Of a stretch of 13,065 bases of DNA, positions 1 to 13,065 are shown one piece after another. Made by a program: the position numbers and the translations under genes. Where the stretch lies: the NCBI GenBank assembly GCA_048939465.1, contig JBHLPL010000052.1, forward strand, positions 1 through 13,065. The letters run 5' to 3'. The notes beneath the pieces are model-generated. The model did not search any database. It saw only the letters and a program-made list of their open reading frames with translations, and was not told the DNA's origin. How positions within the stretch are numbered: the stretch's first letter is position 1; every line of letters begins with the position of its first letter. This DNA comes from Promethearchaeota archaeon. GTDB taxonomy: Archaea > Asgardarchaeota > Odinarchaeia > Odinarchaeales > JBHLKK01.

Positions 1-62
1 ATGTTCTCCCTTCTCCTTTCAACTATACAACCCTCTGCATCTAGACAATTTAAAGATTACGG
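1..62 (-). promoter_or_regulatory. Probable promoter and ribosome-binding site of a minus-strand gene that starts at or just beyond the left window edge
   Basis: The minus strand reads ...ctTTAAAt (55-48), then purine-rich AAGGAGAAGGGAG (about 19-7), then 'AT' at positions 2-1. The G that would complete an ATG is outside the window and cannot be checked. Confidence 0.3.
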
Positions 63-450
63 AACTATCTTCTATATCGCGGAAGTAACACATTGGTTAA
101 TATTTAACTGATTAGTTACTCTCCTAAATGTGAGTAGCAGCTTTCCTATTAACGTACTTCCAAGCAAGATAGAAAATTTTGGGCGCAAGCTGGCAAGACA
201 GTTTTCATACCATCTTAACTGTTTACATGCCTAAACTTCGTTTTCTCTTGTTGACTAAGCAGGGAGGTCTCCAATGTCCATGCACGAGTGAGTTATTATC
301 CGATGGACCGTGCAAACGTTCTGGTCACCAACCTACTGATTTCATGTTGTTCCGGGACAAGTATACAAATTATGAGGAAACGGAGAGGTCTGGCACCGGA
401 AAATGATTGACAACAGAACTCATGCGTACGTATGTTTAGAGGTGGCATAT

Positions 451-499: not shown

Positions 500-2539
500 C
501 TATGGTGTCCAAGGCGGGGCTGTATAGCCGAACTGCATTGCAACGAAGGTGATGTCTCGAATGTCAACTCTTTCGTCCATGTTTATGTCGGCGTAAGCGT
601 CCCATCTTGGGTGTACATCGCCGATTGCGTAGTAGGATCCGAAGGACAGCGCCACTTGAGTGATGTCTCGAATGTTGATTGCTCCGTCCATGTTAATGTC
701 TTCTGCGGGCAGGTCTTCTTTCCAGTAGTGGTAGAAGAAGGCACCTGAGTATATAGGGTTGTAGTACCATCCTTGAACCCACTCTCGTTCCCAGTGGCGT
801 CCAGTTGCCTGATGAGTTTGGACTCCTGGGCACTCGTCGATGTAGAGTTCCTGCAGTTCATAGTAGATTTCTTGTCTTCTAACAGGATCTACAGTCGTTC
901 CTCCTTCTTCAATCAGTGCGTCGGCGATAGGATTGCTATAGCTTTGCCAGCCTGAGAAGGCTCCATACGTATGCATGAATGGATGGAAGAAGTTGTGTGG
1001 GTCAGGATAGTCAGCTAGCCAACCGATGATGAAGAGTGTTAGGTCGCCATTGAACAGTTCAGGAATATACACGGTGCCCCATTCGACCTCTAGGGTATCG
1101 ATGTGGAACTTTGAGTTAAGCAGCTCAACATTGCTTTCGAGCATTTCAGCTATCGTTTTCCTTGGAAGGTTGCCTATGTTGTAACAGATTGTCAGCGTGA
1201 ACCCTGTTTCCCATAACTGACCGCCCCAAGCAAGCTTAAACTCCTCCTCAGCCTTCGCTAGGTCGAGCATATATTGATGTTCGGCATACCATTCATCGGA
1301 CTGTCTGTAGGGCAATCCCCATATTGCTGGGGTAGCCGGGTACTTAGCCTCGCCGAGAAATGCTATTGCAAGGAACTCGATGTAGTCCATAGCGTACGCG
1401 AAGCCCTTTCTTACGTGGATATCAGTGAAGAAGTCCGGTGGAAATCCACCCTCGTTCAATTCGCCGGCGGCACATTCGTAACTTGTGAAGGGCGGTTTCA
1501 AGTAGCGGCTCGTACTAGCTATATCGAAGTTGAAGAAGAAGCCGGAACAACTCAACGTTGCTAGGGGATAGATGCATGTTAATCCAGGTTGACCCCAAAC
1601 GTCCGCCATGTACATTCTTGGAACGTAGGCGAAGTCAAGGTCTCCTGCTAGGAACATCAGTTTCCTCGTAGGCCATTCGTCAATAAACTTCACTGTAGCC
1701 CTTGAAACGTAGCCTCTGGCAGTTCCGATTACCGGATGTTTAGCTGGCCAGCCGTCCCAATAGTCGTCGAATTTGTAGATTGACCACTCCAACGCGTGCT
1801 CCCAATAGTCGAAAATGTAGGGGCCGGCTCCCATCATTACTGGTTCCGGATCCATTAGTGGTGAAACTTCAGGATTGTGATAAGCCGCCATAGACTCCAT
1901 AGTGTATACTCCGTTCCAGCATCCCTGTTCGATAGCCCACTCCTTACTAAGTATGCTCGCCCATTGCTGAGCCCACACTTGGTAGACAATCATTGACGGA
2001 AATGGTCCAGCACACTTGAAGTAAACATTGTTAGCATCGCTCTCAACAGCAGCGTCTATTTTGTTGATGAACTCTGGATCCTCCATGTCAGCTGCGTAAC
2101 AGCCAAGCAGAGGCTCAAAGACCATCCATTGGGGACCGCCATCCTTGTCCATGACCATCCACCTCTCAAAGCTGTACTCCACATCCGCGGGAGTAACAAA
2201 ACCGTAAGCAGGGTCCTGCCATGGCACATTTTTTCTAACAACAAAGGTGTATGTCAAGGTTGCTTCATCATAACTCCATGATGTAGCGAGGCTGGGCAAG
2301 AACTCGTCAGTCGCTTCTCCGTCAAACCACAGTAGCGAGTCATACACGTTCATTATTAATTCTCCACTTGCAGTATCATAACACTCAGCTGGATCCACAG
2401 TCTGCGGCTCACCAATCGTCCCCACAACGATTTCATTCGGATTCATCACATCAGGTGTTGCCGTTGCCGTTGTAATTAGAAAGCTTCCCAGTAGCAGCAG
2501 AGTCAAGATCAAAGTAGACAATAGATTTTTACTATTCAT
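500..2539 (-). CDS. oppA: ABC transporter substrate-binding protein, family 5 (OppA/DppA/NikA-like), with a C-terminal dockerin-like domain
   Basis: 679 aa. N-terminal signal peptide (MNSK + hydrophobic h-region + ITATA|TP). Family-5 motifs: TVDPAECYDTASGELIMNVYDSLLWFD, LPSLATSW, YTFVVRKNVPWQD, VTPADVEYSFER, GAGPYIF, DIHVRKGFAYAMD, GWLADYPDPHNF. Purine-rich AGGAAAAGGA just upstream of the ATG. Adjacent to oppBCDF-like genes. Substrate (peptide, oligosaccharide or metal) cannot be determined from sequence. Confidence 0.93.
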   Translation of the reverse strand: MNSKNLLSTLILTLLLLGSFLITTATATPDVMNPNEIVVGTIGEPQTVDPAECYDTASGELIMNVYDSLLWFDGEATDEFLPSLATSWSYDEATLTYTFVVRKNVPWQDPAYGFVTPADVEYSFERWMVMDKDGGPQWMVFEPLLGCYAADMEDPEFINKIDAAVESDANNVYFKCAGPFPSMIVYQVWAQQWASILSKEWAIEQGCWNGVYTMESMAAYHNPEVSPLMDPEPVMMGAGPYIFDYWEHALEWSIYKFDDYWDGWPAKHPVIGTARGYVSRATVKFIDEWPTRKLMFLAGDLDFAYVPRMYMADVWGQPGLTCIYPLATLSCSGFFFNFDIASTSRYLKPPFTSYECAAGELNEGGFPPDFFTDIHVRKGFAYAMDYIEFLAIAFLGEAKYPATPAIWGLPYRQSDEWYAEHQYMLDLAKAEEEFKLAWGGQLWETGFTLTICYNIGNLPRKTIAEMLESNVELLNSKFHIDTLEVEWGTVYIPELFNGDLTLFIIGWLADYPDPHNFFHPFMHTYGAFSGWQSYSNPIADALIEEGGTTVDPVRRQEIYYELQELYIDECPGVQTHQATGRHWEREWVQGWYYNPIYSGAFFYHYWKEDLPAEDINMDGAINIRDITQVALSFGSYYAIGDVHPRWDAYADINMDERVDIRDITFVAMQFGYTAPPWTP
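549..700 (-). repeat. Duplicated Ca-binding (F-hand) loops of a dockerin-like domain at the SBP C-terminus
   Basis: Loop 1 DINMDGAINIRD (700-665) and loop 2 DINMDERVDIRD (589-554), each followed by a helix-like ITxVAxxFG. D/N occupy Ca-ligand positions 1,3,5,9,12 in both. At DNA level, gtgatgtctcgaatgt is identical at 549-564 and 660-675. Confidence 0.85.
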
Positions 2540-2565: not shown

Positions 2566-2605
2566 CAAAAAAGAATATGCGGTGAGTGATATTTAATTCT
2601 TATGG
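2566..2605 (-). promoter_or_regulatory. Candidate BRE/TATA promoter of the SBP gene
   Basis: The minus strand reads ataaga-aTTAAATAtc (TATA-like core 2596-2589), about 50 nt upstream of the ATG at 2539, leaving room for a short leader containing the AGGA SD-like site. Confidence 0.45.
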
Positions 2606-2717
2606 AACATTATTACATATCTTTCCTGAGCACGAAAATCTTTAGTAAATGAGCCAAATTGGGCTTTCTCACTCGTTTATGCCTTAATGACTGGCGGCAG
2701 TTTTATACTCGTCTTCT

Positions 2718-3524
2718 TTACCAGCCCCTACGCTTCATATAAGCTATGAAGATGACGAATGCGACTACCATAGCGGTGAATAATACGAAGTTGGAAAGAG
2801 GCAACTGTGTATAATGATGTACAACAATGAATAATTCATAACTTGCTGGGCTTATCTCAAATGGTTTTGAACTAAGTTCAAACGTTGCTTTAGCCCCTGA
2901 ATCTATCGCTGTGCTGACATGGGCATGAGACATGGCTATCAGATAGTCTGTTGCATTATAATACGCGCAGATTACCTTTACGGCGACAGCTTTCGTTTTC
3001 CAATTGTTCTGGACTTCTCCAACTACTTTATGATACCCCTCCTTATCAAAACTAGCAGTTTGATTTATGACTTCGACTCCTCTGACAGGTTCTTCATCTG
3101 TCTCGAAACATGAAGCAGTAACCTCATATCGGGATGGAATGGATGTGGACGAACCTAATAATAGATAGATTTCGAAGGGCGCTCTCTCCCCAGGCTCGAT
3201 TATCTCCAGTTCGATATGACCTAATAGAGATGAATTTTCAATCATTTTTCCCTCCGCATCGTAGAACATCGCAGTCACATTAACAGAGCATACGTTAGTT
3301 GAAAGGTTATTCTCAATCACACCAGCAACCACGAAAAATGTGACGATTTCCTTTTCGCTTTCTACCTGATCAATATAACTGATATCGCTTAGAATCTTTA
3401 GCGCTTTTGGCGCCTCTAGCACCTCTCTTGTTGAGGCTGACCGTAATGGTAGGTAATAATAAGTCCCAACTAGGCCTGGGATGGTTGCGACGAGTATAGC
3501 GGCTATTGCTAGCTTACTGTTCAT
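2718..3524 (-). CDS. Membrane-anchored surface protein with two FxLYD-type (Ig-like beta-sandwich) domains
   Basis: 268 aa. N-terminal hydrophobic segment. Two repeats of the pattern VxGx(I/V)xNN...V(T/I)xxxY(D/N)...GxxAxFE: VVAGVIENN..VTAMFYD..PGERAPFEI and VVGEVQNN..VICAYYN..SGAKATFEL. C-terminal TM helix with basic tail KRRGW. Five N-x-S/T sequons (NLS, NVT, NSS, NQT, NAT). Confidence 0.75.
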   Translation of the reverse strand: MNSKLAIAAILVATIPGLVGTYYYLPLRSASTREVLEAPKALKILSDISYIDQVESEKEIVTFFVVAGVIENNLSTNVCSVNVTAMFYDAEGKMIENSSLLGHIELEIIEPGERAPFEIYLLLGSSTSIPSRYEVTASCFETDEEPVRGVEVINQTASFDKEGYHKVVGEVQNNWKTKAVAVKVICAYYNATDYLIAMSHAHVSTAIDSGAKATFELSSKPFEISPASYELFIVVHHYTQLPLSNFVLFTAMVVAFVIFIAYMKRRGW

Positions 3525-3670
3525 GTAACCGCACCAAAAAAGTTCTCAACATCGTAAGATATTAAGTTGTCTCTTTCATTCATGATTGTTAACAGTTAAA
3601 GTTACTGGGTTGACACGTGCACGCAAATGTTATTAACCTCTGTCTGCATGCATGCACGAGGGTAATTAAG
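3525..3670. promoter_or_regulatory. Divergent promoter region between the FxLYD/SBP arm and the permease-ATPase operon
   Basis: Minus-strand TATA-like TTAATATC (3565-3558). Plus-strand TATA-like TTATTAA (3630-3636). Palindromes TGTTAACA (3587-3594) and TGCATGCATGCA (3645-3656). SD-like GAGGG before the GTG at 3671. Confidence 0.5.
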
Positions 3671-4711
3671 GTGGGTTTGAGAGCATATGCCATTAGAAGA
3701 GCCATACTGATAATACCAGTCTTGATCGGTGTTACCTTGCTCGTTTTCGCAATCACCCAATTCTTCGACCCAATCGCTAGGGCTTCCCTGTACGTCGACA
3801 TAACTAAAGTCAGAAATATGACAGCCGTCATTGAGAAATACGGCTTAAACGATCCGATCTACGTCCAGTATTTTCGTTGGTTGACTGAAGTTTCACACGG
3901 CAACTTGGGATACTCGCGAGAGCAACGTATGTATGTCCTACCGTCTCTCCTCAAGAAGTTCCCCGTCACAGCTGAGGTTGTCCTGTATTCCGTACCTCTC
4001 ACTATTTTTATAGGCATATACCTAGGTGTCAAATCGGCTGTACACCGCAATAAGGTCATTGACCATATGACAAGGATTGTGGCAATAATCGGCTGGTCTC
4101 TTCCAACCTTTTGGTCTGCCATAATATTACTTTCAGTGTTTTACGGCGGTTTCGGTGTTTTTCCGCCTGAGAGGCTGAGCAGAGAAGCAGAGGCATTTAT
4201 AAGGGCGGGCATAAGGCTTGGTACCTACCATAGCTACACAGGACTTAACACATTTGACGGGTTGGTGAACGGGCAACCATGGATAACTTGGGATGCGCTA
4301 CAGCACCTTGTGCTTCCAGTTATAAACTTGGTTATAGTGCAAATAGCGCTTATTATAAGAGTAATGCGCTCAAGCATGTTGGAGGCGCTCAACAAAGGGT
4401 ACATGGTTACAGCGAGGGCAAAAGGTCTAAGTCAAAGTGAAGTCATCAATAAACATGCGAGAAGGAACGCTTTGATCCCGGTGGTTACACTCTCAGGACT
4501 ACTGATTGCAGGCATGTTAACTGGTATGGTGATAACGGAAACTGTCTTCCATATTCCGGGCCTAGGAAGGGCTGCGGCCAGTGCTGCCCTTCATCTTGAC
4601 ATACCATTTGTACTTGGTTTCTCCCTACTCACGGGTATCATTTTTGTAATCGCAAACTTAATTGTAGACATAGTATACGCATACGTAGACCCTCGAATCA
4701 GATTGGGGTGA
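3671..4711 (+). CDS. oppB: Peptide/nickel ABC transporter permease (OppB/DppB-like)
   Basis: The typical N-terminus 'MGLRAYAIRRAILIIPVLIGVTLLVF' begins at GTG 3671, not at the ORF-track start 3617. Motifs: YGLNDPIYVQYFRWL, GNLGYS, LPTFW, HLVLP, EAA-like loop YMVTARAKGL, KHARRNALIPVVT, ETVFHIPGLG, NLIVDIVYAYVDPRIR. Confidence 0.95.
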   Translation: MGLRAYAIRRAILIIPVLIGVTLLVFAITQFFDPIARASLYVDITKVRNMTAVIEKYGLNDPIYVQYFRWLTEVSHGNLGYSREQRMYVLPSLLKKFPVTAEVVLYSVPLTIFIGIYLGVKSAVHRNKVIDHMTRIVAIIGWSLPTFWSAIILLSVFYGGFGVFPPERLSREAEAFIRAGIRLGTYHSYTGLNTFDGLVNGQPWITWDALQHLVLPVINLVIVQIALIIRVMRSSMLEALNKGYMVTARAKGLSQSEVINKHARRNALIPVVTLSGLLIAGMLTGMVITETVFHIPGLGRAAASAALHLDIPFVLGFSLLTGIIFVIANLIVDIVYAYVDPRIRLG

Positions 4712-4715
4712 TGAG

Positions 4716-5714
4716 ATGAACATTCGGTCCAAGTTAAAGGAATTCAAACTCTCAATGGGGCCTACTGTAAAGGAATTAAGATTTATAACCAGCAGGATAA
4801 AGAAAAGTCCCCTTTCAATCCTCGGCTTATCAATACTCTTATTCTATATCGCAATTGCGTTGCTAGCCCCCATACTGGCACCCCCACGCCCCCCGCCTAT
4901 GGGGCGTGACGACCCATTCATAGTATGGAAGGACTTGGACATTCCCGCCCTCGAGCGAATGATGCCTCATCCTCCGAGTCCCAGACACCCACTCGGAACG
5001 ACAGAAGAAAGTTACGACATTTACTATGGATGCATCTGGGGAACAATAACAGCATTTCGTGTAGGAATCATGGTTGTATTTAGTTCTTTATTGGCCAGTC
5101 TCATTATCGGAGGTGTTGCTGGCTACTACGGGGGAATCGTCGACGAGATATTGATGCGGCTCACTGATATCATCTATGCTTTTCCCGGTTTGATTCTCTG
5201 TATGGCCTTGGTTACTGCCTTGCCCTCTCTGTATCAGTTGGGCCCCTTTGTTGTTACCTTGACCAAATTGGACAAAGTTTTAATGGCCCTCATCCTAGTT
5301 GGATGGCCATCGTATAGTAGGGTGATCCGAGGGGAGATATTAAGAGTCAAGCAGGAGGATTACATCGAAGCCGCCAAGGCCGTTGGATGCTCCGATCTTA
5401 GGGTGATGGTCAAGCACGTTTTGCCGAACGCCATATATCCTATCGTAATCATGGCCTCCCTAGATATAGGGGCAATCGTCTTGACCGCTGCGGCGCTGAG
5501 TTTCCTGGGACTCGGTGCCCCGCCGGGTTACGCAGACTGGGGACAACTGATATCCCTGTCAAGAAACTACATATATGGGAACATAACTGATCCATTCAGG
5601 CACTGGTACGTGTGGCTCACACCTGGCGCATTTATATTCACCTTCGTTCTAGGATGGAACCTACTAGGAGATGCGTTCAGGGACATTCTCGATCCAACGC
5701 TGAGGAGAAGATAA
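4716..5714 (+). CDS. oppC: Peptide/nickel ABC transporter permease (OppC/DppC-like)
   Basis: 332 aa. Motifs: HPLGT, DEILMRLTD, GWPSYSRVIRG, EAA motif EDYIEAAKAVG, KHVLPN, ALSFLGLG, WGQLI, WNLLGDAFRDILDP. SD GGGGTGA overlaps the oppB stop. Confidence 0.95.
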   Translation: MNIRSKLKEFKLSMGPTVKELRFITSRIKKSPLSILGLSILLFYIAIALLAPILAPPRPPPMGRDDPFIVWKDLDIPALERMMPHPPSPRHPLGTTEESYDIYYGCIWGTITAFRVGIMVVFSSLLASLIIGGVAGYYGGIVDEILMRLTDIIYAFPGLILCMALVTALPSLYQLGPFVVTLTKLDKVLMALILVGWPSYSRVIRGEILRVKQEDYIEAAKAVGCSDLRVMVKHVLPNAIYPIVIMASLDIGAIVLTAAALSFLGLGAPPGYADWGQLISLSRNYIYGNITDPFRHWYVWLTPGAFIFTFVLGWNLLGDAFRDILDPTLRRR

Positions 5715-6872
5715 ATGAGCAAACTCATCGAAATCGAAGATCTTGTGTTAAAATTCTACACTTATGAAGGAATTGTGAAAGCCCTAGAAGGGATCAACCT
5801 CTTTGTGAAGGAGGGCGAAACGCTAGGAATCGTAGGAGAGACAGGATGCGGGAAAACCATGACAGGTCTCTCAATCTTCTATCTCATCCCGTCACCAGGG
5901 AAGATAGAGAGCGGAAAGGTCTTCTTCAAAACCAGAGATGGACCTGTGAATCTCCTCAGCCTAAAAGAGTCCGATCTAAGAAAAATCAGGGGAAAGGATA
6001 TTTCCATGGTGTTTCAAGAACCAAGGTCCGCCCTCAACCCCGTATACACCGTTAACGAACAAGTTTCGGAAGTCTTCTTACAACATAGGAAAAAGGAATT
6101 GATCCAGAGCGCACTTGATCAACTTGAAAAGGACATTCAGAGCGTGGAGACAGGGTCTTTAAAGGGTCGCATTTATAGATGGGAAAAAAAGATTTTCAAC
6201 AAAATGTTAAGAAATCCAGATTCTTTTTCTCTGAAAATCCTTTCAAAAATTCCAATCGCCAACTGGCATAACCGCAGACTGAAGAACGAGGTAAGAAAAG
6301 CAGTTGTTGAAATCCTTAGAGAAATGGAGATACCTGACCCAGAGAGGGTTACTGATATGTACCCTCATGAACTAAGTGGAGGCATGCAACAACGAGTTGT
6401 CATAGCCATAGCCCTCGCATGTAATCCGACTCTCCTCGCAGCTGATGAGCCAACAACCTCTCTCGACGTGACCGTCCAAGCTCGGATTTTAGACCTTATG
6501 AGAAGACTTAAGGACAAATCCAAGTCGTCCATCCTTTACATAACTCATGATATGGGAGTCATTGCGGAAATGTGTGATCGCGTAGCTGTGATGTACGCGG
6601 GAAGCATCTGTGAGGCCGCCAATGTCATCGAAATTTTCAAGAATCCTCTCCATCCTTATACTAAAGCCCTATTGGCGTCTATTCCGAGGCCTGGAGAGGA
6701 ATTTAGGTCCATCATCGGCACGGTACCGAATCTAATAGATCCCCCCGCAGGTTGCAGGTTTCACCCTAGGTGTCCTATGGCTAGGGAAATATGTCGTAAG
6801 GTCAAACCTAACATTGTAGAAGTAAAGAAAGACCATTTCGTTTCATGTCACCTATACCTGAGGCATGCATAA
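5715..6872 (+). CDS. oppD: Peptide/nickel ABC transporter ATP-binding protein (OppD/DppD-like)
   Basis: 385 aa. Walker [10 protein letters not shown]-loop MVFQEP, signature LSGGMQQR, Walker [10 protein letters not shown]-loop ITHD, C-terminal HPYT and Cys cluster CRFHPRC..C..C. The ATG directly follows the oppC stop. Confidence 0.96.
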
Positions 6873-7921
6873 TGATAACTTTACTGGAAACAAATAGGTT
6901 AAAAAAGTTCTACTCCATAAGAGGAGGAGTCTTCAGAAGAAAGGTAGGTGAAGTGAGAGCTGTAGACGATGTCAGCCTAAGCATAGCTAAAGGTGAATGT
7001 TTTGGTCTAGTCGGGGAGTCGGGATGCGGCAAAACAACGTATGGTAAAACGATAATCCGACTACTCAAACCGACTGCAGGTCATATTTACTTCAATGTCC
7101 CAGATGATGTGAAGGAAGAAATAGAGAAACTTGAGAATTCAAACCCAGGGTCCGGCAGGCTAAAGAAACTTAGAGAGGAATACGATCTCTCCACGTATGG
7201 CGGACAAAAGCTGAAACCAATGAGGAAAAAGATGCAGATAGTCTATCAAGATCCCTCATCTTCTCTCAATCCTAGAATGCTCATCAAAGATGTCGTCGGG
7301 GAACCACTTGTTGTCCAGAAACTGGCGAAGGGAAAAGAAGTTATGGAAAAGGTGCTGGAGTTGCTTGGTAAGGTGGGGCTAACGGAAAGACATCTCTACA
7401 GATATCCACACGAGTTCAGTGGAGGGCAGAGGCAAAGAATTGCAATAGCTAGAGCCCTCGCAACTAGCCCTGACTTTGTAGTTCTTGATGAGCCGACTTC
7501 TTCTGTAGATGTTTCGGTGAGGGCACAGTTGCTCAGGCTCTTTCAGGACTTACAGAAAGACTTGGGGTTAACCTACCTGTTCATTAGTCACGATTTGAGC
7601 GTTGTAGAATGCATAAGTCATAGGCTTGCGGTCATGTACGTTGGAAAAGTAGTGGAATTCACTAATACCGAGGAGATATTCCACAAACCGCTTCATCCTT
7701 ACTCCAAAGCTCTAATCTCCTCGATCCCGGTTCCAGATCCAACCATAAATCGGGAGCAAGTCATACTTAAGGGAGAAGTGCCAAGCCCAGTGAACCCTCC
7801 TGTGGGTTGCAGGTTTAACCCTAGATGCGACAGGGCAATGGACATTTGTCGCAAAGAAGAACCTGAGCTTATAGATGTAGGAAAGGAACATTTTGTAGCT
7901 TGTCACCTCTTCAAAAGCTAG
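6872..7921 (+). CDS. oppF: Peptide/nickel ABC transporter ATP-binding protein (OppF/DppF-like)
   Basis: Start reassigned to ATG 6872, which overlaps the oppD stop (TAATG). Walker A GESGCGKT, IVYQDP, FSGGQRQR, VVLDEPT, ISHD, HPYS and CRFNPRC..C..C. Confidence 0.96.
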   Translation: MITLLETNRLKKFYSIRGGVFRRKVGEVRAVDDVSLSIAKGECFGLVGESGCGKTTYGKTIIRLLKPTAGHIYFNVPDDVKEEIEKLENSNPGSGRLKKLREEYDLSTYGGQKLKPMRKKMQIVYQDPSSSLNPRMLIKDVVGEPLVVQKLAKGKEVMEKVLELLGKVGLTERHLYRYPHEFSGGQRQRIAIARALATSPDFVVLDEPTSSVDVSVRAQLLRLFQDLQKDLGLTYLFISHDLSVVECISHRLAVMYVGKVVEFTNTEEIFHKPLHPYSKALISSIPVPDPTINREQVILKGEVPSPVNPPVGCRFNPRCDRAMDICRKEEPELIDVGKEHFVACHLFKS

Positions 7922-8088: not shown

Positions 8089-8487
8089 GTGATTCGTTTA
8101 ACGCAACAAGGTAAAAGTTCAAAAGAAGGTGTTGAACTTAGCTTTTTGAGGGAATACATTCTGAAAATAGCAAAGAAAGCAAAATATTCCAAATTTCCTG
8201 CCGTAATTAAGAAAATTGTCTTGGTTGTGTTCGTTATATTGATTTTCGATATTCTGGTAGCGGGCATATGGACCTTTTTGGATAAAGGAAATTGGTTTTT
8301 CTCTGACAAGTCTCAAGTACGCATATTAAGCGACCTATTGTTTATCGAAGGAGCAATAACCTTTGCTGTTGGTGCCTTTGTCGCGTTAGGAATGTCTAAG
8401 ACGATGCTGGCTACATGCGCGCGCGTGATGATCATCGGAGCAAGCCTAATGGGATCATCCATGGCGATTGGCATGTTGCTCCTTTAA
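8089..8487 (+). CDS. Small hypothetical membrane protein (about 3 TM helices)
   Basis: 132-aa ORF with hydrophobic segments (IVLVVFVILIFDILVAGIWTFL; LLFIEGAITFAVGAFVALGM; VMIIGASLMGSSMAIGMLLL) and a basic N-region. TATA-like TTTTTAAG at about 8070-8077. Alternative start TTG 8146 after AGGTG. No family recognised. Confidence 0.65.
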   Translation: MIRLTQQGKSSKEGVELSFLREYILKIAKKAKYSKFPAVIKKIVLVVFVILIFDILVAGIWTFLDKGNWFFSDKSQVRILSDLLFIEGAITFAVGAFVALGMSKTMLATCARVMIIGASLMGSSMAIGMLLL

Positions 8488-9565: not shown

Positions 9566-10009
9566 ATGAGAAGTAAACGCAAGAAGGGAAGAAGAAATAA
9601 CAAACGAATATTAATTCCGTTGCTTCTCGTACTCGTTATTATTATAGCTATAGCAGTAGCATTATTCCGAGATCAGTCGGGACAGCCGAAACATACAGCT
9701 GAAGAATATTTTGAGATTTCCAACGTAAATTATGAAGGATGGAAGGATGAGAATTCGGATCTATGGGTGACTTTTATATCATTCAATCTTTCAGCTATTG
9801 AAGGAGACGCCCACGAGGTGTATGTTACACCTGTTTCGGGAATGACAGATCCCACAGAGGTAGGAACAATCAAGGAAGGAACCTCTAAGACAGTACTCAT
9901 CCAACTTAGCATGGCTGTTTATATCCATCCTAAAGAAGAAGGATTTCCTTTTCCAATTACGATCACCTGCCATGAAGCAAGGGGAAAGATCACTATTACT
10001 CTCAAGTGA
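9566..10009 (+). CDS. Hypothetical single-pass membrane protein with an external beta-rich domain
   Basis: 147 aa. Very basic N-region MRSKRKKGRRNNKR, TM ILIPLLLVLVIIIAIAVALF, then alternating beta-strand-like segments. T-run at 10025-10029 after the stop. Confidence 0.75.
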   Translation: MRSKRKKGRRNNKRILIPLLLVLVIIIAIAVALFRDQSGQPKHTAEEYFEISNVNYEGWKDENSDLWVTFISFNLSAIEGDAHEVYVTPVSGMTDPTEVGTIKEGTSKTVLIQLSMAVYIHPKEEGFPFPITITCHEARGKITITLK

Positions 10010-10176
10010 AGATAGACATCATGATTTTTCCGTCTGGAGAATTTACTAAACCAACTGCGCAACTTTCCATGATATATCCTATGCGCGTGCGATCATAATC
10101 TGGGCATCATTCCAGCAAAAAGAAAGCCATTTGTGCACGCACAATATAGTGCCAACAAACTCTCGCATGCATGCAT

Positions 10177-10271
10177 ATGCGCCTGTACCATCTCTCCATC
10201 ATACCTGAACTCAGCCATACATTTTCCCCTAGGTCTTCAAGGATTTCAATAGGCGAGCCTAGTCGTTCAGC
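10177..10271 (-). pseudogene. Frameshifted remnant of an ATP-dependent DNA ligase gene (motif I region)
   Basis: Aligns to lig 12301-12396. 10236-10271 matches 12361-12396 at 34/36 nt; 10177-10227 matches 12301-12351 at 37/51 nt; a 1-nt deletion lies between them. It translates as AERLGSPIEILE..(frameshift)..GKCMAEFRYDGEMVQAH, versus AERLGSPVEILE..GKCIAEFKYDGERIQAH in lig. Confidence 0.85.
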
Positions 10272-10432
10272 CATGCATTCTGTTCGTATGCAACAGGTTA
10301 ACCCTTCAATTGTCAGGTGCGATATCATCCATGGCTCTCACCATGCAATGGATTTTCCGCGCAATTCTCCAACCAACAAAATATTTAAGATTGAGAATAC
10401 ACTTTATTTGTTGGGAGGAAAATAGAATCTAT

Positions 10433-10717
10433 TTGACGAATCTCTTTCCATTTCTTGCGTTTAAGAATAGAGATAGAGTCACTATAATTGCGGACATTCT
10501 AAAATCAGTTAGTGAAAACGGGAAAGGCAAGAGAAAAACGAGCATAATGCAAAGTGCCAATCTGAACTACCCTCTTGTGAACAAATACCTTGAACTACTG
10601 ATGCGCAATGGGTACGTAGTACTTGACGACGGACGCATGTACAAACCAACCAGTAAGGGATTAAGGTTCTTGCAAAATCTTGAAACCGACGTTCTAAAGC
10701 TAACATATAGAACCTGA
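10433..10717 (+). CDS. Winged helix-turn-helix transcriptional regulator (archaeal HTH_45-like)
   Basis: RDRVTIIADIL...KTSIMQSANLNYPLVNKYLELLMRNGYV....YKPTSKGLRFL matches the small archaeal wHTH pattern. The start is probably TTG 10433 (TATA-like TTTAAG 10384-10389, GGGAGG 10413-10418), not the ORF-track start 10310. Confidence 0.85.
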   Translation: MTNLFPFLAFKNRDRVTIIADILKSVSENGKGKRKTSIMQSANLNYPLVNKYLELLMRNGYVVLDDGRMYKPTSKGLRFLQNLETDVLKLTYRT

Positions 10718-10848
10718 GCATTACAAGCCTAGATAAGCTACATATACATGGATTCGGAACAACCGTGCTGAACACTGTAAAAGAACAGTGCGCGCATGCA
10801 GAGCAACCTAGATCCGGTAACCCTTTAAAATACCATGGAAATCTTTAC

Positions 10849-11259
10849 ATGAAGCTGAAGATGCAAAGAAACTGGACAAAGAAAAACGTGGAGTTAGCCT
10901 TACTCACCACACGCATAGGTGATTTCTTCAAGCAGAAAGACTTCGAAGCAATAAAAGGAAAAATACCGACAGGCTACCAAATTCTTGCAGAGGACTCACC
11001 ACACTTTAAGATACATGGATACGCAAGCGTAACTATAGAAGGAAAAACACAAGATTTCACCGTGAAGCTTGAACATTGCGGGAATAACAAAAAGAGCTCT
11101 TGGCTTTCGCCCTTTTTGTTAAATATGCTTGGCGGTGGATATTTCTTTTTGCAACAACTGAAGTCAAAGGAGGCTTGGATAAAACTGGAAAAGGAATTCT
11201 GGAGACACGTGGAAAACGTTGTGCTGCAATTAACTAACTCAGCAGAACTTTCAACATGA
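10849..11259 (+). CDS. Hypothetical protein (about 136 aa, alpha/beta)
   Basis: Protein-like composition from ATG 10849 (or 10861). TATA-like TTTAAAAT at 10824-10831 is positioned for a leaderless or short-leader transcript, so the ORF-track GTG start at 10765 is probably too early. Confidence 0.7.
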   Translation: MKLKMQRNWTKKNVELALLTTRIGDFFKQKDFEAIKGKIPTGYQILAEDSPHFKIHGYASVTIEGKTQDFTVKLEHCGNNKKSSWLSPFLLNMLGGGYFFLQQLKSKEAWIKLEKEFWRHVENVVLQLTNSAELST

Positions 11260-11319: not shown

Positions 11320-13065
11320 TCAGCTTTCGTCCACCTTCTTTAATTGACTCTGGTACATCTGCGTTATTTCTTTAACCGTTGTTGCGTCTTCAGCAGACTT
11401 GTCCAATCGATAATTCCGAGTGAATCGCGGGAATCTTATGGCAAGTCCGCTTCCCTTTCGAATAACATCTAGGGCGCAGGTGTGGATAGGGCTAAGCGTT
11501 ATTTCCGCGCCAATAGTTTCTATGACAACTTTTGGCTCGAACCAAACATCTGCCTCAATGGTTGAGTGAACTCTCGGATGTCGATGAGGTATTCTGTGTT
11601 TTTCCATTATCTTAGGAAGTTTTTCCAAGTCTTCGTCTGTGAATCCCGTTCCGCATTTGGTGACTGTCTTGAACATGTCTTCTTCAGGGTCGTATGCGGC
11701 TAAGAGTAGGGCTCCGTATGTTCCGGCTCTTTTCCCCCTCCCATGGAACGCTCCTACGACTACTAAGTCGACTGTGTCTGTCATTTCACTCTTGTAATCT
11801 CGCTTATATTTTATCCAGAGCCACCCCCTTGCCCCCGCCTGATAAACAGCATCTCCAGTCAACGACTTGCAGATTAATCCTTCACATCCACTTTCTACAG
11901 CTTTTTCAAAGAATCTCTCTAATTCATCTGGATCATCAGTAACAAGATATTCAGCTACGCTGACACGGGCACTCTCTTTGACAACTTTTTCAAGGTGTTC
12001 ATGTCTAATAGGGTATGGTTTTAGGGTCAGGTCTTTTCCATCAATGTACAAAGCGTCGAACATAAAAAGTGAGACAGGATATTCTTTCATAGCTTTTTTT
12101 ATGCCATATTTTCGCCTTCTGTGCATCAATTCTTGGAAAGGCTTCATTTCACCAGTGTCTGGATCGATTGCTACACATTCAGCTTCGATGATAGCGTCCT
12201 CTGCCTTCACATATTTCCTGACTAGTTCGCTGCCGTCAGGATACTGAGCTGTTATGTCTTCCAGTCGCCGAGAGAATAAGATGACATTGTCTGTCTGCTT
12301 GTGGGCTTGTATTCTCTCTCCGTCGTATTTGAATTCGGCTATGCATTTTCCTCCGACCTTTTCAAGGATTTCAACGGGCGAGCCTAGTCGTTCAGCTAAC
12401 ATGGGTCTAATAGGTTCTCCGAGCGAAACTTCAAACTTTTTAACGCCCTCTATTCCCTGCTGTACAACTGTTTTTGCTACTCTGCCCAAATCAGACGAAA
12501 TGTTGTACGCCCGCTCCAAATATTTCCGAGCTTCTTTTCCTCCGCCAAACGCAACAGCCAATGCATCGAGAACCGTCATGTCGGCAATTCCCAATCTCAG
12601 TTTGCCTGTGACCGTGCGAATGACATACTTTCCCTCCTTAGAAGTAGCATTTGCCAACAGACCGGCCAAGAGGCTTGTCTTCAGTTCAATAGACCCAGGA
12701 CCTGCAGCTTTTGCCATCTTATCTAGGTTTGAATACACATTGTGAACGGTCAGTTGTTCTTGAAAAAACGTTCTTTGAGTTTTCTTTTCCAGAAATTTCT
12801 CGGTGGTCTCACCCAAGTCCCCTGTTTTTTTCACATGTTCTTCGATTTCTTTTTCGCTGTAACCCGTTGCTTTGGCGACCGCACGTATAGCTAACTTCTC
12901 TGCAATCCCCATCTCAATTCCAACAAAGTCGGGATAGAGTTTCCCTTGTGTCAAGTAGACAACTTTGTCAATTAGGTCTTTAGAAGTCTGTTTGAGGAGT
13001 TTGACTAAGAGGTCTGTCATTTCCAGCCTTTTAGTTGTGGCTTCAATTTCTTCGTAGACCTCTGC
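11320..13065 (-). CDS. lig: ATP-dependent DNA ligase (archaeal), 5'-truncated by the window edge
   Basis: The frame stays open to the window edge (AEVYEEIEATTKRLE precedes the ORF-track Met). Motif I EFKYDGER, III IIEAEC, IIIa LFMFDALY, IV EGLICK, V WIKYKRDY, VI RFPRF. N-terminal DNA-binding domain (LRLGIADMTVLDALA). QRTFF segment (12777-12763) resembles the QKSFF PCNA-interaction motif of Pyrococcus ligase. Confidence 0.98.
   Translation of the reverse strand, partial: AEVYEEIEATTKRLEMTDLLVKLLKQTSKDLIDKVVYLTQGKLYPDFVGIEMGIAEKLAIRAVAKATGYSEKEIEEHVKKTGDLGETTEKFLEKKTQRTFFQEQLTVHNVYSNLDKMAKAAGPGSIELKTSLLAGLLANATSKEGKYVIRTVTGKLRLGIADMTVLDALAVAFGGGKEARKYLERAYNISSDLGRVAKTVVQQGIEGVKKFEVSLGEPIRPMLAERLGSPVEILEKVGGKCIAEFKYDGERIQAHKQTDNVILFSRRLEDITAQYPDGSELVRKYVKAEDAIIEAECVAIDPDTGEMKPFQELMHRRRKYGIKKAMKEYPVSLFMFDALYIDGKDLTLKPYPIRHEHLEKVVKESARVSVAEYLVTDDPDELERFFEKAVESGCEGLICKSLTGDAVYQAGARGWLWIKYKRDYKSEMTDTVDLVVVGAFHGRGKRAGTYGALLLAAYDPEEDMFKTVTKCGTGFTDEDLEKLPKIMEKHRIPHRHPRVHSTIEADVWFEPKVVIETIGAEITLSPIHTCALDVIRKGSGLAIRFPRFTRNYRLDKSAEDATTVKEITQMYQSQLKKVDES

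Follow-up and report, generated by a model that had tools for sequence, protein, structure and literature searches.

What keeps the receptor of an ATP-binding cassette (ABC) importer at the surface of an archaeal cell when that receptor ends in a dockerin and shows none of the usual means of attachment? ABC binding proteins of archaea and Gram-positive bacteria are usually anchored by an N-terminal transmembrane (TM) helix, a lipobox cysteine or a C-terminal TM helix. The window analysed here is a stretch of 13,065 bp from a Promethearchaeota archaeon (Odinarchaeales; JBHLPL010000052.1) and makes up the entire contig C101 of a metagenome-assembled genome (MAG) of 1.96 Mb in 152 contigs, 91% complete. 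It encodes a substrate-binding protein (SBP), P0001, that combines a signal-peptide-like N-terminus with a dockerin tail. We regard tethering of this SBP at the cell surface by a cohesin as the best explanation and as a probable one. For the host genome itself, this reading draws on related loci and on the conserved promoter at the end of the contig. We infer that the dockerin binds a cohesin, which kind of cohesin it uses and that the host genome carries one.

A binding protein with a dockerin tail

The features on which the argument turns first are the following.

500–2539, minus strand: OppA/DppA-type substrate-binding protein with a C-terminal dockerin (P0001, 679 amino acids; open reading frame (ORF), Pfam and AlphaFold2 model)
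2459–2539, minus strand: signal-peptide-like N-terminus, residues 1–27 (sequence reading and conservation among homologues)
536–703, minus strand: dockerin, residues 613–668, with two F-hand calcium loops at residues 614–625 and 651–662 (Pfam, hidden Markov model (HMM), solved structures and structural model)
3617–7921, plus strand: OppB-, OppC-, OppD- and OppF-type permease and ATPase genes (Pfam, two BPD_transp_1 and two ABC_tran plus oligo_HPY)

The dockerin is genuine. The tail of P0001 matches Dockerin_1 (PF00404) at 25.1 bits against a cut-off of 22.9 in a Pfam search of the protein, and the module reaches 29.9 bits in a six-frame search of the genome. Its two 12-residue calcium-loop motifs, DINMDGAINIRD (614–625) and DINMDERVDIRD (651–662), are each followed by a helix, and both loops and both helices are intact and conserved. 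The tail also matches solved cellulosomal dockerins (2y3n_B, E = 3.3e-4; 4wi0_B; 4u3s_B), and it reaches 93.8 bits with an HMM made from 51 homologous tails. In the AlphaFold2 model, residues 610–679 have a predicted local distance difference test (pLDDT) score of 82–92, with helices at 623–631 and 660–668.

The remainder of the protein is a family-5 ABC binding protein, both by its SBP_bac_5 domain (PF00496; residues 80–526, E = 2.3e-45, Pfam search of P0001) and by an operon with two permeases and two oligo_HPY ATPases; the AlphaFold2 model of the whole chain has a mean pLDDT of 88.2 and a predicted TM-score (pTM) of 0.82. The Opp/Dpp-type importer at 3617–7921 is complete and divergent from the SBP gene, and its gene order is kept in relatives. 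The substrate-type equivalog models DppA, OppA and NikA gave weak partial matches far under their cut-offs. Peptidase genes occur near homologous loci, a hint of a peptide substrate.

At the N-terminus, P0001 reads MNSKN, a 17-residue hydrophobic stretch and TTATA↓TP (the arrow marks the proposed cut), with no cysteine and hence no lipobox. The conserved core motif NP.E..VGTIGEP begins six residues past the proposed cut, and the small-x-small site is kept in close homologues (AVSA↓P, TVSA↓D, PASA↓Q). The model draws a low-confidence helix over residues 3–26 with a break at residues 19–28, and places no TM helix at the C-terminus. From these features the signal peptide is predicted to be cleaved. 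A preliminary description of this DNA, made from the letters alone, had placed at 500–2539 a dockerin-tailed SBP without a conventional anchor, citing an A-x-A-like site, the missing lipobox cysteine and the lack of a C-terminal TM helix, and had proposed a domain search of the tail. The Dockerin_1 score above cut-off, the solved dockerins and the model now confirm the protein that it described, and the cleavage-like site proves to be conserved. The gene position was right as well; the strand, on which the description was silent, is minus.

The same description held that no other anchor could be recognised, and this agrees with the homologues, in which members of the family that lack a dockerin are mostly TM-anchored at one end or the other. 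We compared 121 homologues, with a crude test for an N-terminal TM anchor (hydrophobicity of 2.5 or more over 21 residues, together with an uncharged run of 21 or longer). The test was passed by 2 of 43 dockerin-bearing homologues with complete N-termini as against 21 of 36 without a dockerin, counts of related sequences that describe the family and are not statistics. Of the other 15 dockerin-less proteins, most are TM-anchored as judged by eye, end in a TM helix or carry a dockerin-like tail that is degenerate. Dockerin-bearing homologues carry short, signal-peptide-like N-termini, whereas in those that stop just past the core (…YYNPIYPGIYFY.LSKGY) the chain opens with a long TM helix and a linker; a few homologues instead end in a TM helix or in a degenerate tail of dockerin type. 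Between TM-anchored and dockerin-bearing relatives, the median uncharged run is 23 versus 16 residues and the median distance to the core 53 versus 38 residues. A FastTree phylogeny of the core alone requires five changes of dockerin state, four of them forced by well-supported branches. Such alternation is what would be expected if the dockerin replaces the anchor.

The gene also appears to be expressed. Contigs of a marine-sediment RNA-Seq library (X3), 90–99% identical to the window, span 506–2543 with a summed depth of 120–290, which matches the limits of the SBP gene. The same library gave no contig cover on 1–480 (3′ intergenic) or on 2641–3600, where the upstream gene for an FxLYD membrane protein lies, whereas DNA runs cover both intervals. 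This pattern, taken from the contigs of one study and thus not marking true transcript ends, agrees with strong transcription of the SBP gene as a monocistronic mRNA in close relatives.

Cohesins in related loci and the end of the contig

A dockerin of this kind raises the question of its partner, for which we surveyed 166 loci around homologous SBPs, taken from genomes and metagenomes, by scanning six-frame ORFs with SBP, dockerin, cohesin and FxLYD HMMs; the loci are numbered with L. They are mutually related, so that locus counts are not independent, and those without a dockerin are mostly from bacteria or other archaea, so that kinship confounds their contrast with the dockerin loci. Of the 48 loci with a dockerin-SBP, 32 have at least 1 kb of downstream sequence, and 12 of them have a same-strand cohesin ORF whose start lies less than 1 kb downstream; two more, shorter loci show the beginning of such an ORF. 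Sixteen of the 32 have a cohesin somewhere in the flank. Of 99 comparable loci with a dockerin-less SBP, by contrast, 2 have a cohesin, and in both of these the SBP has a degenerate dockerin-like tail. Pfam confirms the cohesins of L122 (62.8 bits), L120 (77.9 bits) and L119 (37 bits), as well as those of L081, L040 and L049. The best named SBP homologues come from MAGs of Bathyarchaeia and other Thermoproteota, and seven of the eight Bathyarchaeia genomes with a dockerin-SBP hold Pfam cohesins.

The cohesin partners of these relatives take three forms. One is a secreted scaffoldin with two to four cohesins, encoded directly downstream of the SBP and having neither a TM helix nor a dockerin; in the closest SBP relatives (79% identity; L119/L122 and L120) the genes stand in the order FxLYD, dockerin-SBP, scaffoldin with three or four cohesins. 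Another, of 210–260 amino acids, consists of a signal peptide, one cohesin and a proline-rich linker and ends in a TM helix or in …IPEF-TM-KK; such membrane-anchored single cohesins were found in L081 (256 amino acids), L040 (236 and 258), L203 (237), L187, L182 and L050. The third, of 277–293 amino acids, joins a winged-helix N-terminus and one TM helix to a C-terminal cohesin (L119 and L121).

Two further observations concern these gene sets. The genes of the third form lie at L119:879–1712 (minus strand) and L121:7242–8123 (plus strand); their N-terminus is weakly HxlR-like and in L121 includes CPNCG. These winged helix-turn-helix (wHTH)-TM-cohesin proteins could be membrane-tethered regulators, or anchors, with the cohesin outside the cell. 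Regularly found after the multi-cohesin scaffoldin is the gene of a secreted protein of 312–336 amino acids with a weak MG2-like region and a C-terminal dockerin (L122:11399–12406, L203:5849–6787 and L204:6675–7655, all on the plus strand), which is a second cargo.

In the window, the SBP stop codon lies 499 bp from the contig end, and it is this short interval that connects the host genome to its relatives.

48–78, minus strand: promoter element with a palindromic GGAA-N5-TTCC-type core plus a TATA-like TTAAAT, before the putative, unassembled downstream gene (alignment with relatives)
1–25, minus strand: purine-rich GAAAGGAGAAGGGAGAACAT, resembling a ribosome-binding site (RBS), at the contig end (alignment with L120, L122 and L015)
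2591–2621, minus strand: promoter element, second copy, some 50 nt upstream of the SBP start codon (pattern scan; also found in relatives)

On the minus strand, the last 150 bases of the contig can be aligned with sequence lying upstream of the cohesin genes of L015/L016, L120 and L122. The aligned stretch takes in a conserved element, GATATAGAAGATAGTTCCGTAATCTTTAAAT, which also stands before the cohesin scaffoldin gene of the relatives. The window ends at …GGAGAACAT, which aligns with the RBS before the cohesin ATG in L015, L120 and L122; the scaffoldin ATG follows GAAAGGAGAAGGGAGAACAT directly in L120 and 5–8 nt further on in L015 and L122; in the window, the contig stops at that point. In a scan of ten loci, the element occurs almost only before dockerin-SBP or cohesin genes. 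Its pattern was derived from the two window copies, which makes the zero-expectation figure circular, and the recurrence in other loci is the independent part of this result. The shared element suggests a single regulon of dockerin-SBP and cohesin genes.

Taken with the position of the alignment, a gene resembling the relatives' cohesin scaffoldin in location and regulation most likely starts just past the contig end, and its absence from the assembly is probably due to internal repeats or to binning. Attempts to recover this putative gene were unsuccessful. In the probable source run, X1, the contig starts at window position 14, and DNA contigs of runs X2 and X4 overrun the left end of the window. 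When metagenome contigs were scanned for exact copies of the contig's last 32 bases, no match was found. The closest homologues of the L122 scaffoldin, 63% and 61% identical to it, come from contigs that carry the promoter motif too but represent a different population.

How the receptor may be held

One further gene must be considered before the possibilities are weighed.

2718–3524, minus strand: FxLYD membrane protein (P0122, 268 amino acids, tail KRRGW; NCBIfam NF038353 and structural model)

P0122 matches NF038353 in two stretches (E = 1.2e-12, 47.5 bits against a cut-off of 23), and its model (pLDDT 83.7) consists of a TM helix at residues 3–30, beta-sandwiches at 43–142 and 150–239 and a second TM helix at 242–265. 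A Foldseek search with this model returned generic tandem Ig-like matches only, with TM-scores below 0.3, and no cohesin fold. The gene stands directly upstream of the dockerin-SBP gene in 11 loci, in which SBP identity ranges from 38 to 81%, and elsewhere in the cassette in L015, L146 and L203/L204; FxLYD genes occur in 14 of 48 dockerin loci compared with 3 of 118 others. The protein thus appears, from its genomic context, to be a frequent companion of this transporter type. It is also found apart from dockerin-SBPs, with no SBP nearby (L018), with a lipobox-type SBP (L019) and with C-terminally TM-anchored SBPs (L147 and L148). Conversely, five genomes with a dockerin-SBP lack the FxLYD family, and four of the five have cohesins. 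The idea that FxLYD proteins and cohesins are mutually exclusive alternatives was rejected, as three genomes have both.

On the cohesin-tether reading, P0001 would be the Opp/Dpp peptide-type binding protein of the adjoining ABC importer, exported with its signal peptide cut after Ala27. The mature receptor would then owe its place at the surface to calcium-dependent binding of its dockerin to the cohesin module of a surface protein, with no lipid or TM anchor involved. For relatives, the partners would be the products encoded nearby, both the scaffoldin with two to four cohesins and the small single cohesins, anchored through a TM helix or PEF-type end at the C-terminus or through a TM helix at the N-terminus; in the host genome the partner gene would start just past the contig end.

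The preliminary description had likewise proposed an SBP docked onto a cohesin, possibly placed beside dockerin-bearing hydrolases. The first proposal finds partial backing here, in the authenticity of the dockerin, in the alternation of anchors and in the cohesin genes that come after the dockerin-SBP gene in relatives, some of which encode membrane-anchored proteins; what is missing is a cohesin in the host assembly. The second proposal is unsupported, as P0001 is the only dockerin protein found in the host genome (searched with Dockerin_1 and, with filters off, with the lineage HMM), and with one such protein a cellulosome of many enzymes is not supported. The description had also named the lack of any encoded cohesin as an outcome that would overturn its reading. 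None was found in the 91%-complete assembly, a result weakened by the position of the contig end, exactly ahead of the start codon of what is, in relatives, the cohesin scaffoldin gene.

Several results weigh against a cohesin tether. The host genome gave no Pfam Cohesin match at E ≤ 0.1, phmmer with cohesin proteins of the same phylum found nothing in it, and a lineage cohesin HMM, trained in successive rounds on 76 domains from related loci and run with filters off, reached a best E of 0.92; tblastn of the relatives' cohesin proteins against the whole host genome gave no match either. The two genomes of the same genus have neither a dockerin nor a cohesin (the class comprises seven species in the genome set used), and half of the dockerin-SBP loci with sufficient flank have no cohesin nearby. 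In L014, whose SBP is 81% identical to P0001, a transposase fragment and not a cohesin follows the SBP gene. A possible remnant of the L119 wHTH-TM-cohesin gene, sought at the syntenic window positions 10010–10764, was rejected, that interval holding only an unrelated HTH_45 gene. Separately, transposase fragments (DUF772, DDE_Tnp_1) flank the L014 locus at 10499–10741 (minus strand) and 726–1626 (plus strand), one of them replacing the cohesin gene.

These results invite the view that the dockerin is an orphan, its cohesin lost and the tail either vestigial or a calcium-binding stabiliser, with the SBP released or kept in place by the S-layer space. In a sample of 400 genomes of the phylum, Dockerin_1 was found in 37, Cohesin in 10 and both in 6, so that 31 of the 37 dockerin genomes have no Cohesin match; the failure of the Pfam, phmmer and lineage HMM searches in the host assembly, the same-genus genomes without either domain and the insertion sequence fragment after the L014 SBP gene point in the same direction. 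Yet the calcium loops and helices are intact and conserved, as are the promoter and RBS of the putative downstream gene up to the last base of the contig, and DNA contigs of two other runs overrun the contig end. The assembly is moreover fragmented (152 contigs), and repeated cohesin modules assemble poorly. We therefore hold the loss of the partner to be quite improbable. Two alternatives retain a working dockerin and change its role. The N-terminal helix could remain uncleaved and anchor the SBP as it does the dockerin-less paralogues, leaving the dockerin to recruit cohesin-bearing proteins to the transporter or to cluster receptors, and this would accord with the fairly long h-region (17 residues), with the overlap in hydrophobicity between archaeal signal anchors and signal peptides and with the two dockerin-bearing homologues that pass the crude anchor test. 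The conserved small-x-small site six residues ahead of the SBP core, the longer and more hydrophobic helices of TM-anchored relatives, which are followed by a linker, and the low confidence and the break at 19–28 that the model gives this segment all argue for cleavage, and make an uncleaved anchor unlikely.

Alternatively, the dockerin might bind something other than a cohesin, either the doubly anchored FxLYD protein, which would then be the anchor for the SBP, or a component of the S-layer or a glycan. FxLYD is the only conserved extracytoplasmic neighbour present in the host assembly, its frequency beside dockerin-SBP genes is high and its model exposes two beta-sandwiches between two TM helices. 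Against such a partnership stand the FxLYD genes in loci without a dockerin-SBP, the dockerin-SBP genomes that lack FxLYD and for the most part have cohesins, the presence of cohesins even in genomes with FxLYD, and a fold that is a generic tandem Ig-like sandwich and not a cohesin. A complex prediction for the dockerin (residues 596–679) and the FxLYD ectodomain (residues 28–242), both entered as alignments, gave a score of 0.02 and a mark of 0.32 and counts neither way. A non-cohesin partner seems to us to have little probability. It is conceivable, if rather unlikely, that FxLYD is a third part of an archaeal cohesin–dockerin uptake apparatus, as the membrane foot of the scaffoldin or as an adaptor that places the docked receptor over the permease, with the genes switched together through the GGAA-N5-TTCC element, perhaps by the wHTH-TM-cohesin proteins.

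Known systems and the rest of the locus

In cellulosomes, type I dockerins of the enzymes bind the cohesins of a scaffoldin, and anchoring scaffoldins are fixed to the cell wall. With cellulosomes such as those of Acetivibrio thermocellus and Pseudobacteroides cellulosolvens (solved complex 2y3n) the system shares a dockerin that has two F-hand calcium loops and resembles solved dockerins in sequence, and the relatives described here have both multi-cohesin scaffoldins and cell-anchored single cohesins. By contrast, the cargo is a transport receptor and not a glycoside hydrolase, the host genome has one dockerin and not dozens, the anchors of the relatives are TM helices or PEF-type C-termini in place of SLH domains or sortase signals, and no carbohydrate-binding module was seen here. 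Within the phylum sample, single-dockerin proteins of other genomes are not SBPs of the P0001 family. A few genomes of the phylum (G023, G033, G161, G180 and G181) have from 11 to at least 25 Dockerin_1 matches and 3–10 Cohesin matches, including ORFs of 2,000–11,000 amino acids; in most of the others there is no dockerin or just one.

Non-cellulosomal cohesin and dockerin modules of archaea, for example in Archaeoglobus fulgidus, were reportedly described by Bayer in 1999, Haimovitz in 2008 and Peer in 2009. The present modules are likewise archaeal and stand outside cellulose degradation; here, however, cargo and operon context suggest a role in tethering an uptake receptor. The function of archaeal cohesin–dockerin pairs has been an open question since Archaeoglobus, and a transport receptor as cargo offers a concrete and testable role. 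Binding in vitro by A. fulgidus pairs is noted by Chadwick et al. (2022; PMC9012536), whose passages on these modules also report dockerin-bearing NikA/OppA-type and TroA-type SBPs in anaerobic methanotrophic (ANME) archaea, together with scaffoldin-like multi-cohesin proteins, and call for experiments. The fusion of an SBP to a dockerin is thus already in print for ANME archaea, as a genomic observation there as here, and we found no paper that describes it in Bathyarchaeia. The two cases share an ABC binding protein with a dockerin that is known from genomes only, and ANME genomes hold cohesin proteins. They differ in lineage, the best named relatives here being Bathyarchaeia, and in that the cohesin partner is missing from the host assembly; what is documented here is a cassette of FxLYD, dockerin-SBP and cohesin scaffoldin, the alternation of anchors within one SBP family and a shared promoter element. 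The locus therefore adds another lineage, with evidence of expression and of shared regulation; as the partner gene is absent from the assembly, it is an incomplete example.

With conventionally anchored SBPs the system has in common the SBP family (paralogues are 40–50% identical), the Opp-type operon and a receptor that would be kept near its permease, but a covalent or integral anchor would have been exchanged for a non-covalent plug-in module. If so, this would be an exchangeable way of retaining a binding protein on a cell without an outer membrane, and would suggest how uncultured sediment archaea living on detrital peptides organise their uptake.

Beyond the importer, the window holds the following genes.

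10310–10717, plus strand: small HTH_45 winged-helix protein (E = 6.6e-20)
11320–13020: archaeal-type ATP-dependent DNA ligase

The HTH_45 protein is a candidate for regulating the locus. At 8089–8487, 9566–10009 and 10765–11259 (all on the plus strand) lie three small genes that match no Pfam family, two of them encoding a TM helix; in L018, L119 and L120 they are likewise syntenic with the Opp operon and the gene for the DNA ligase.

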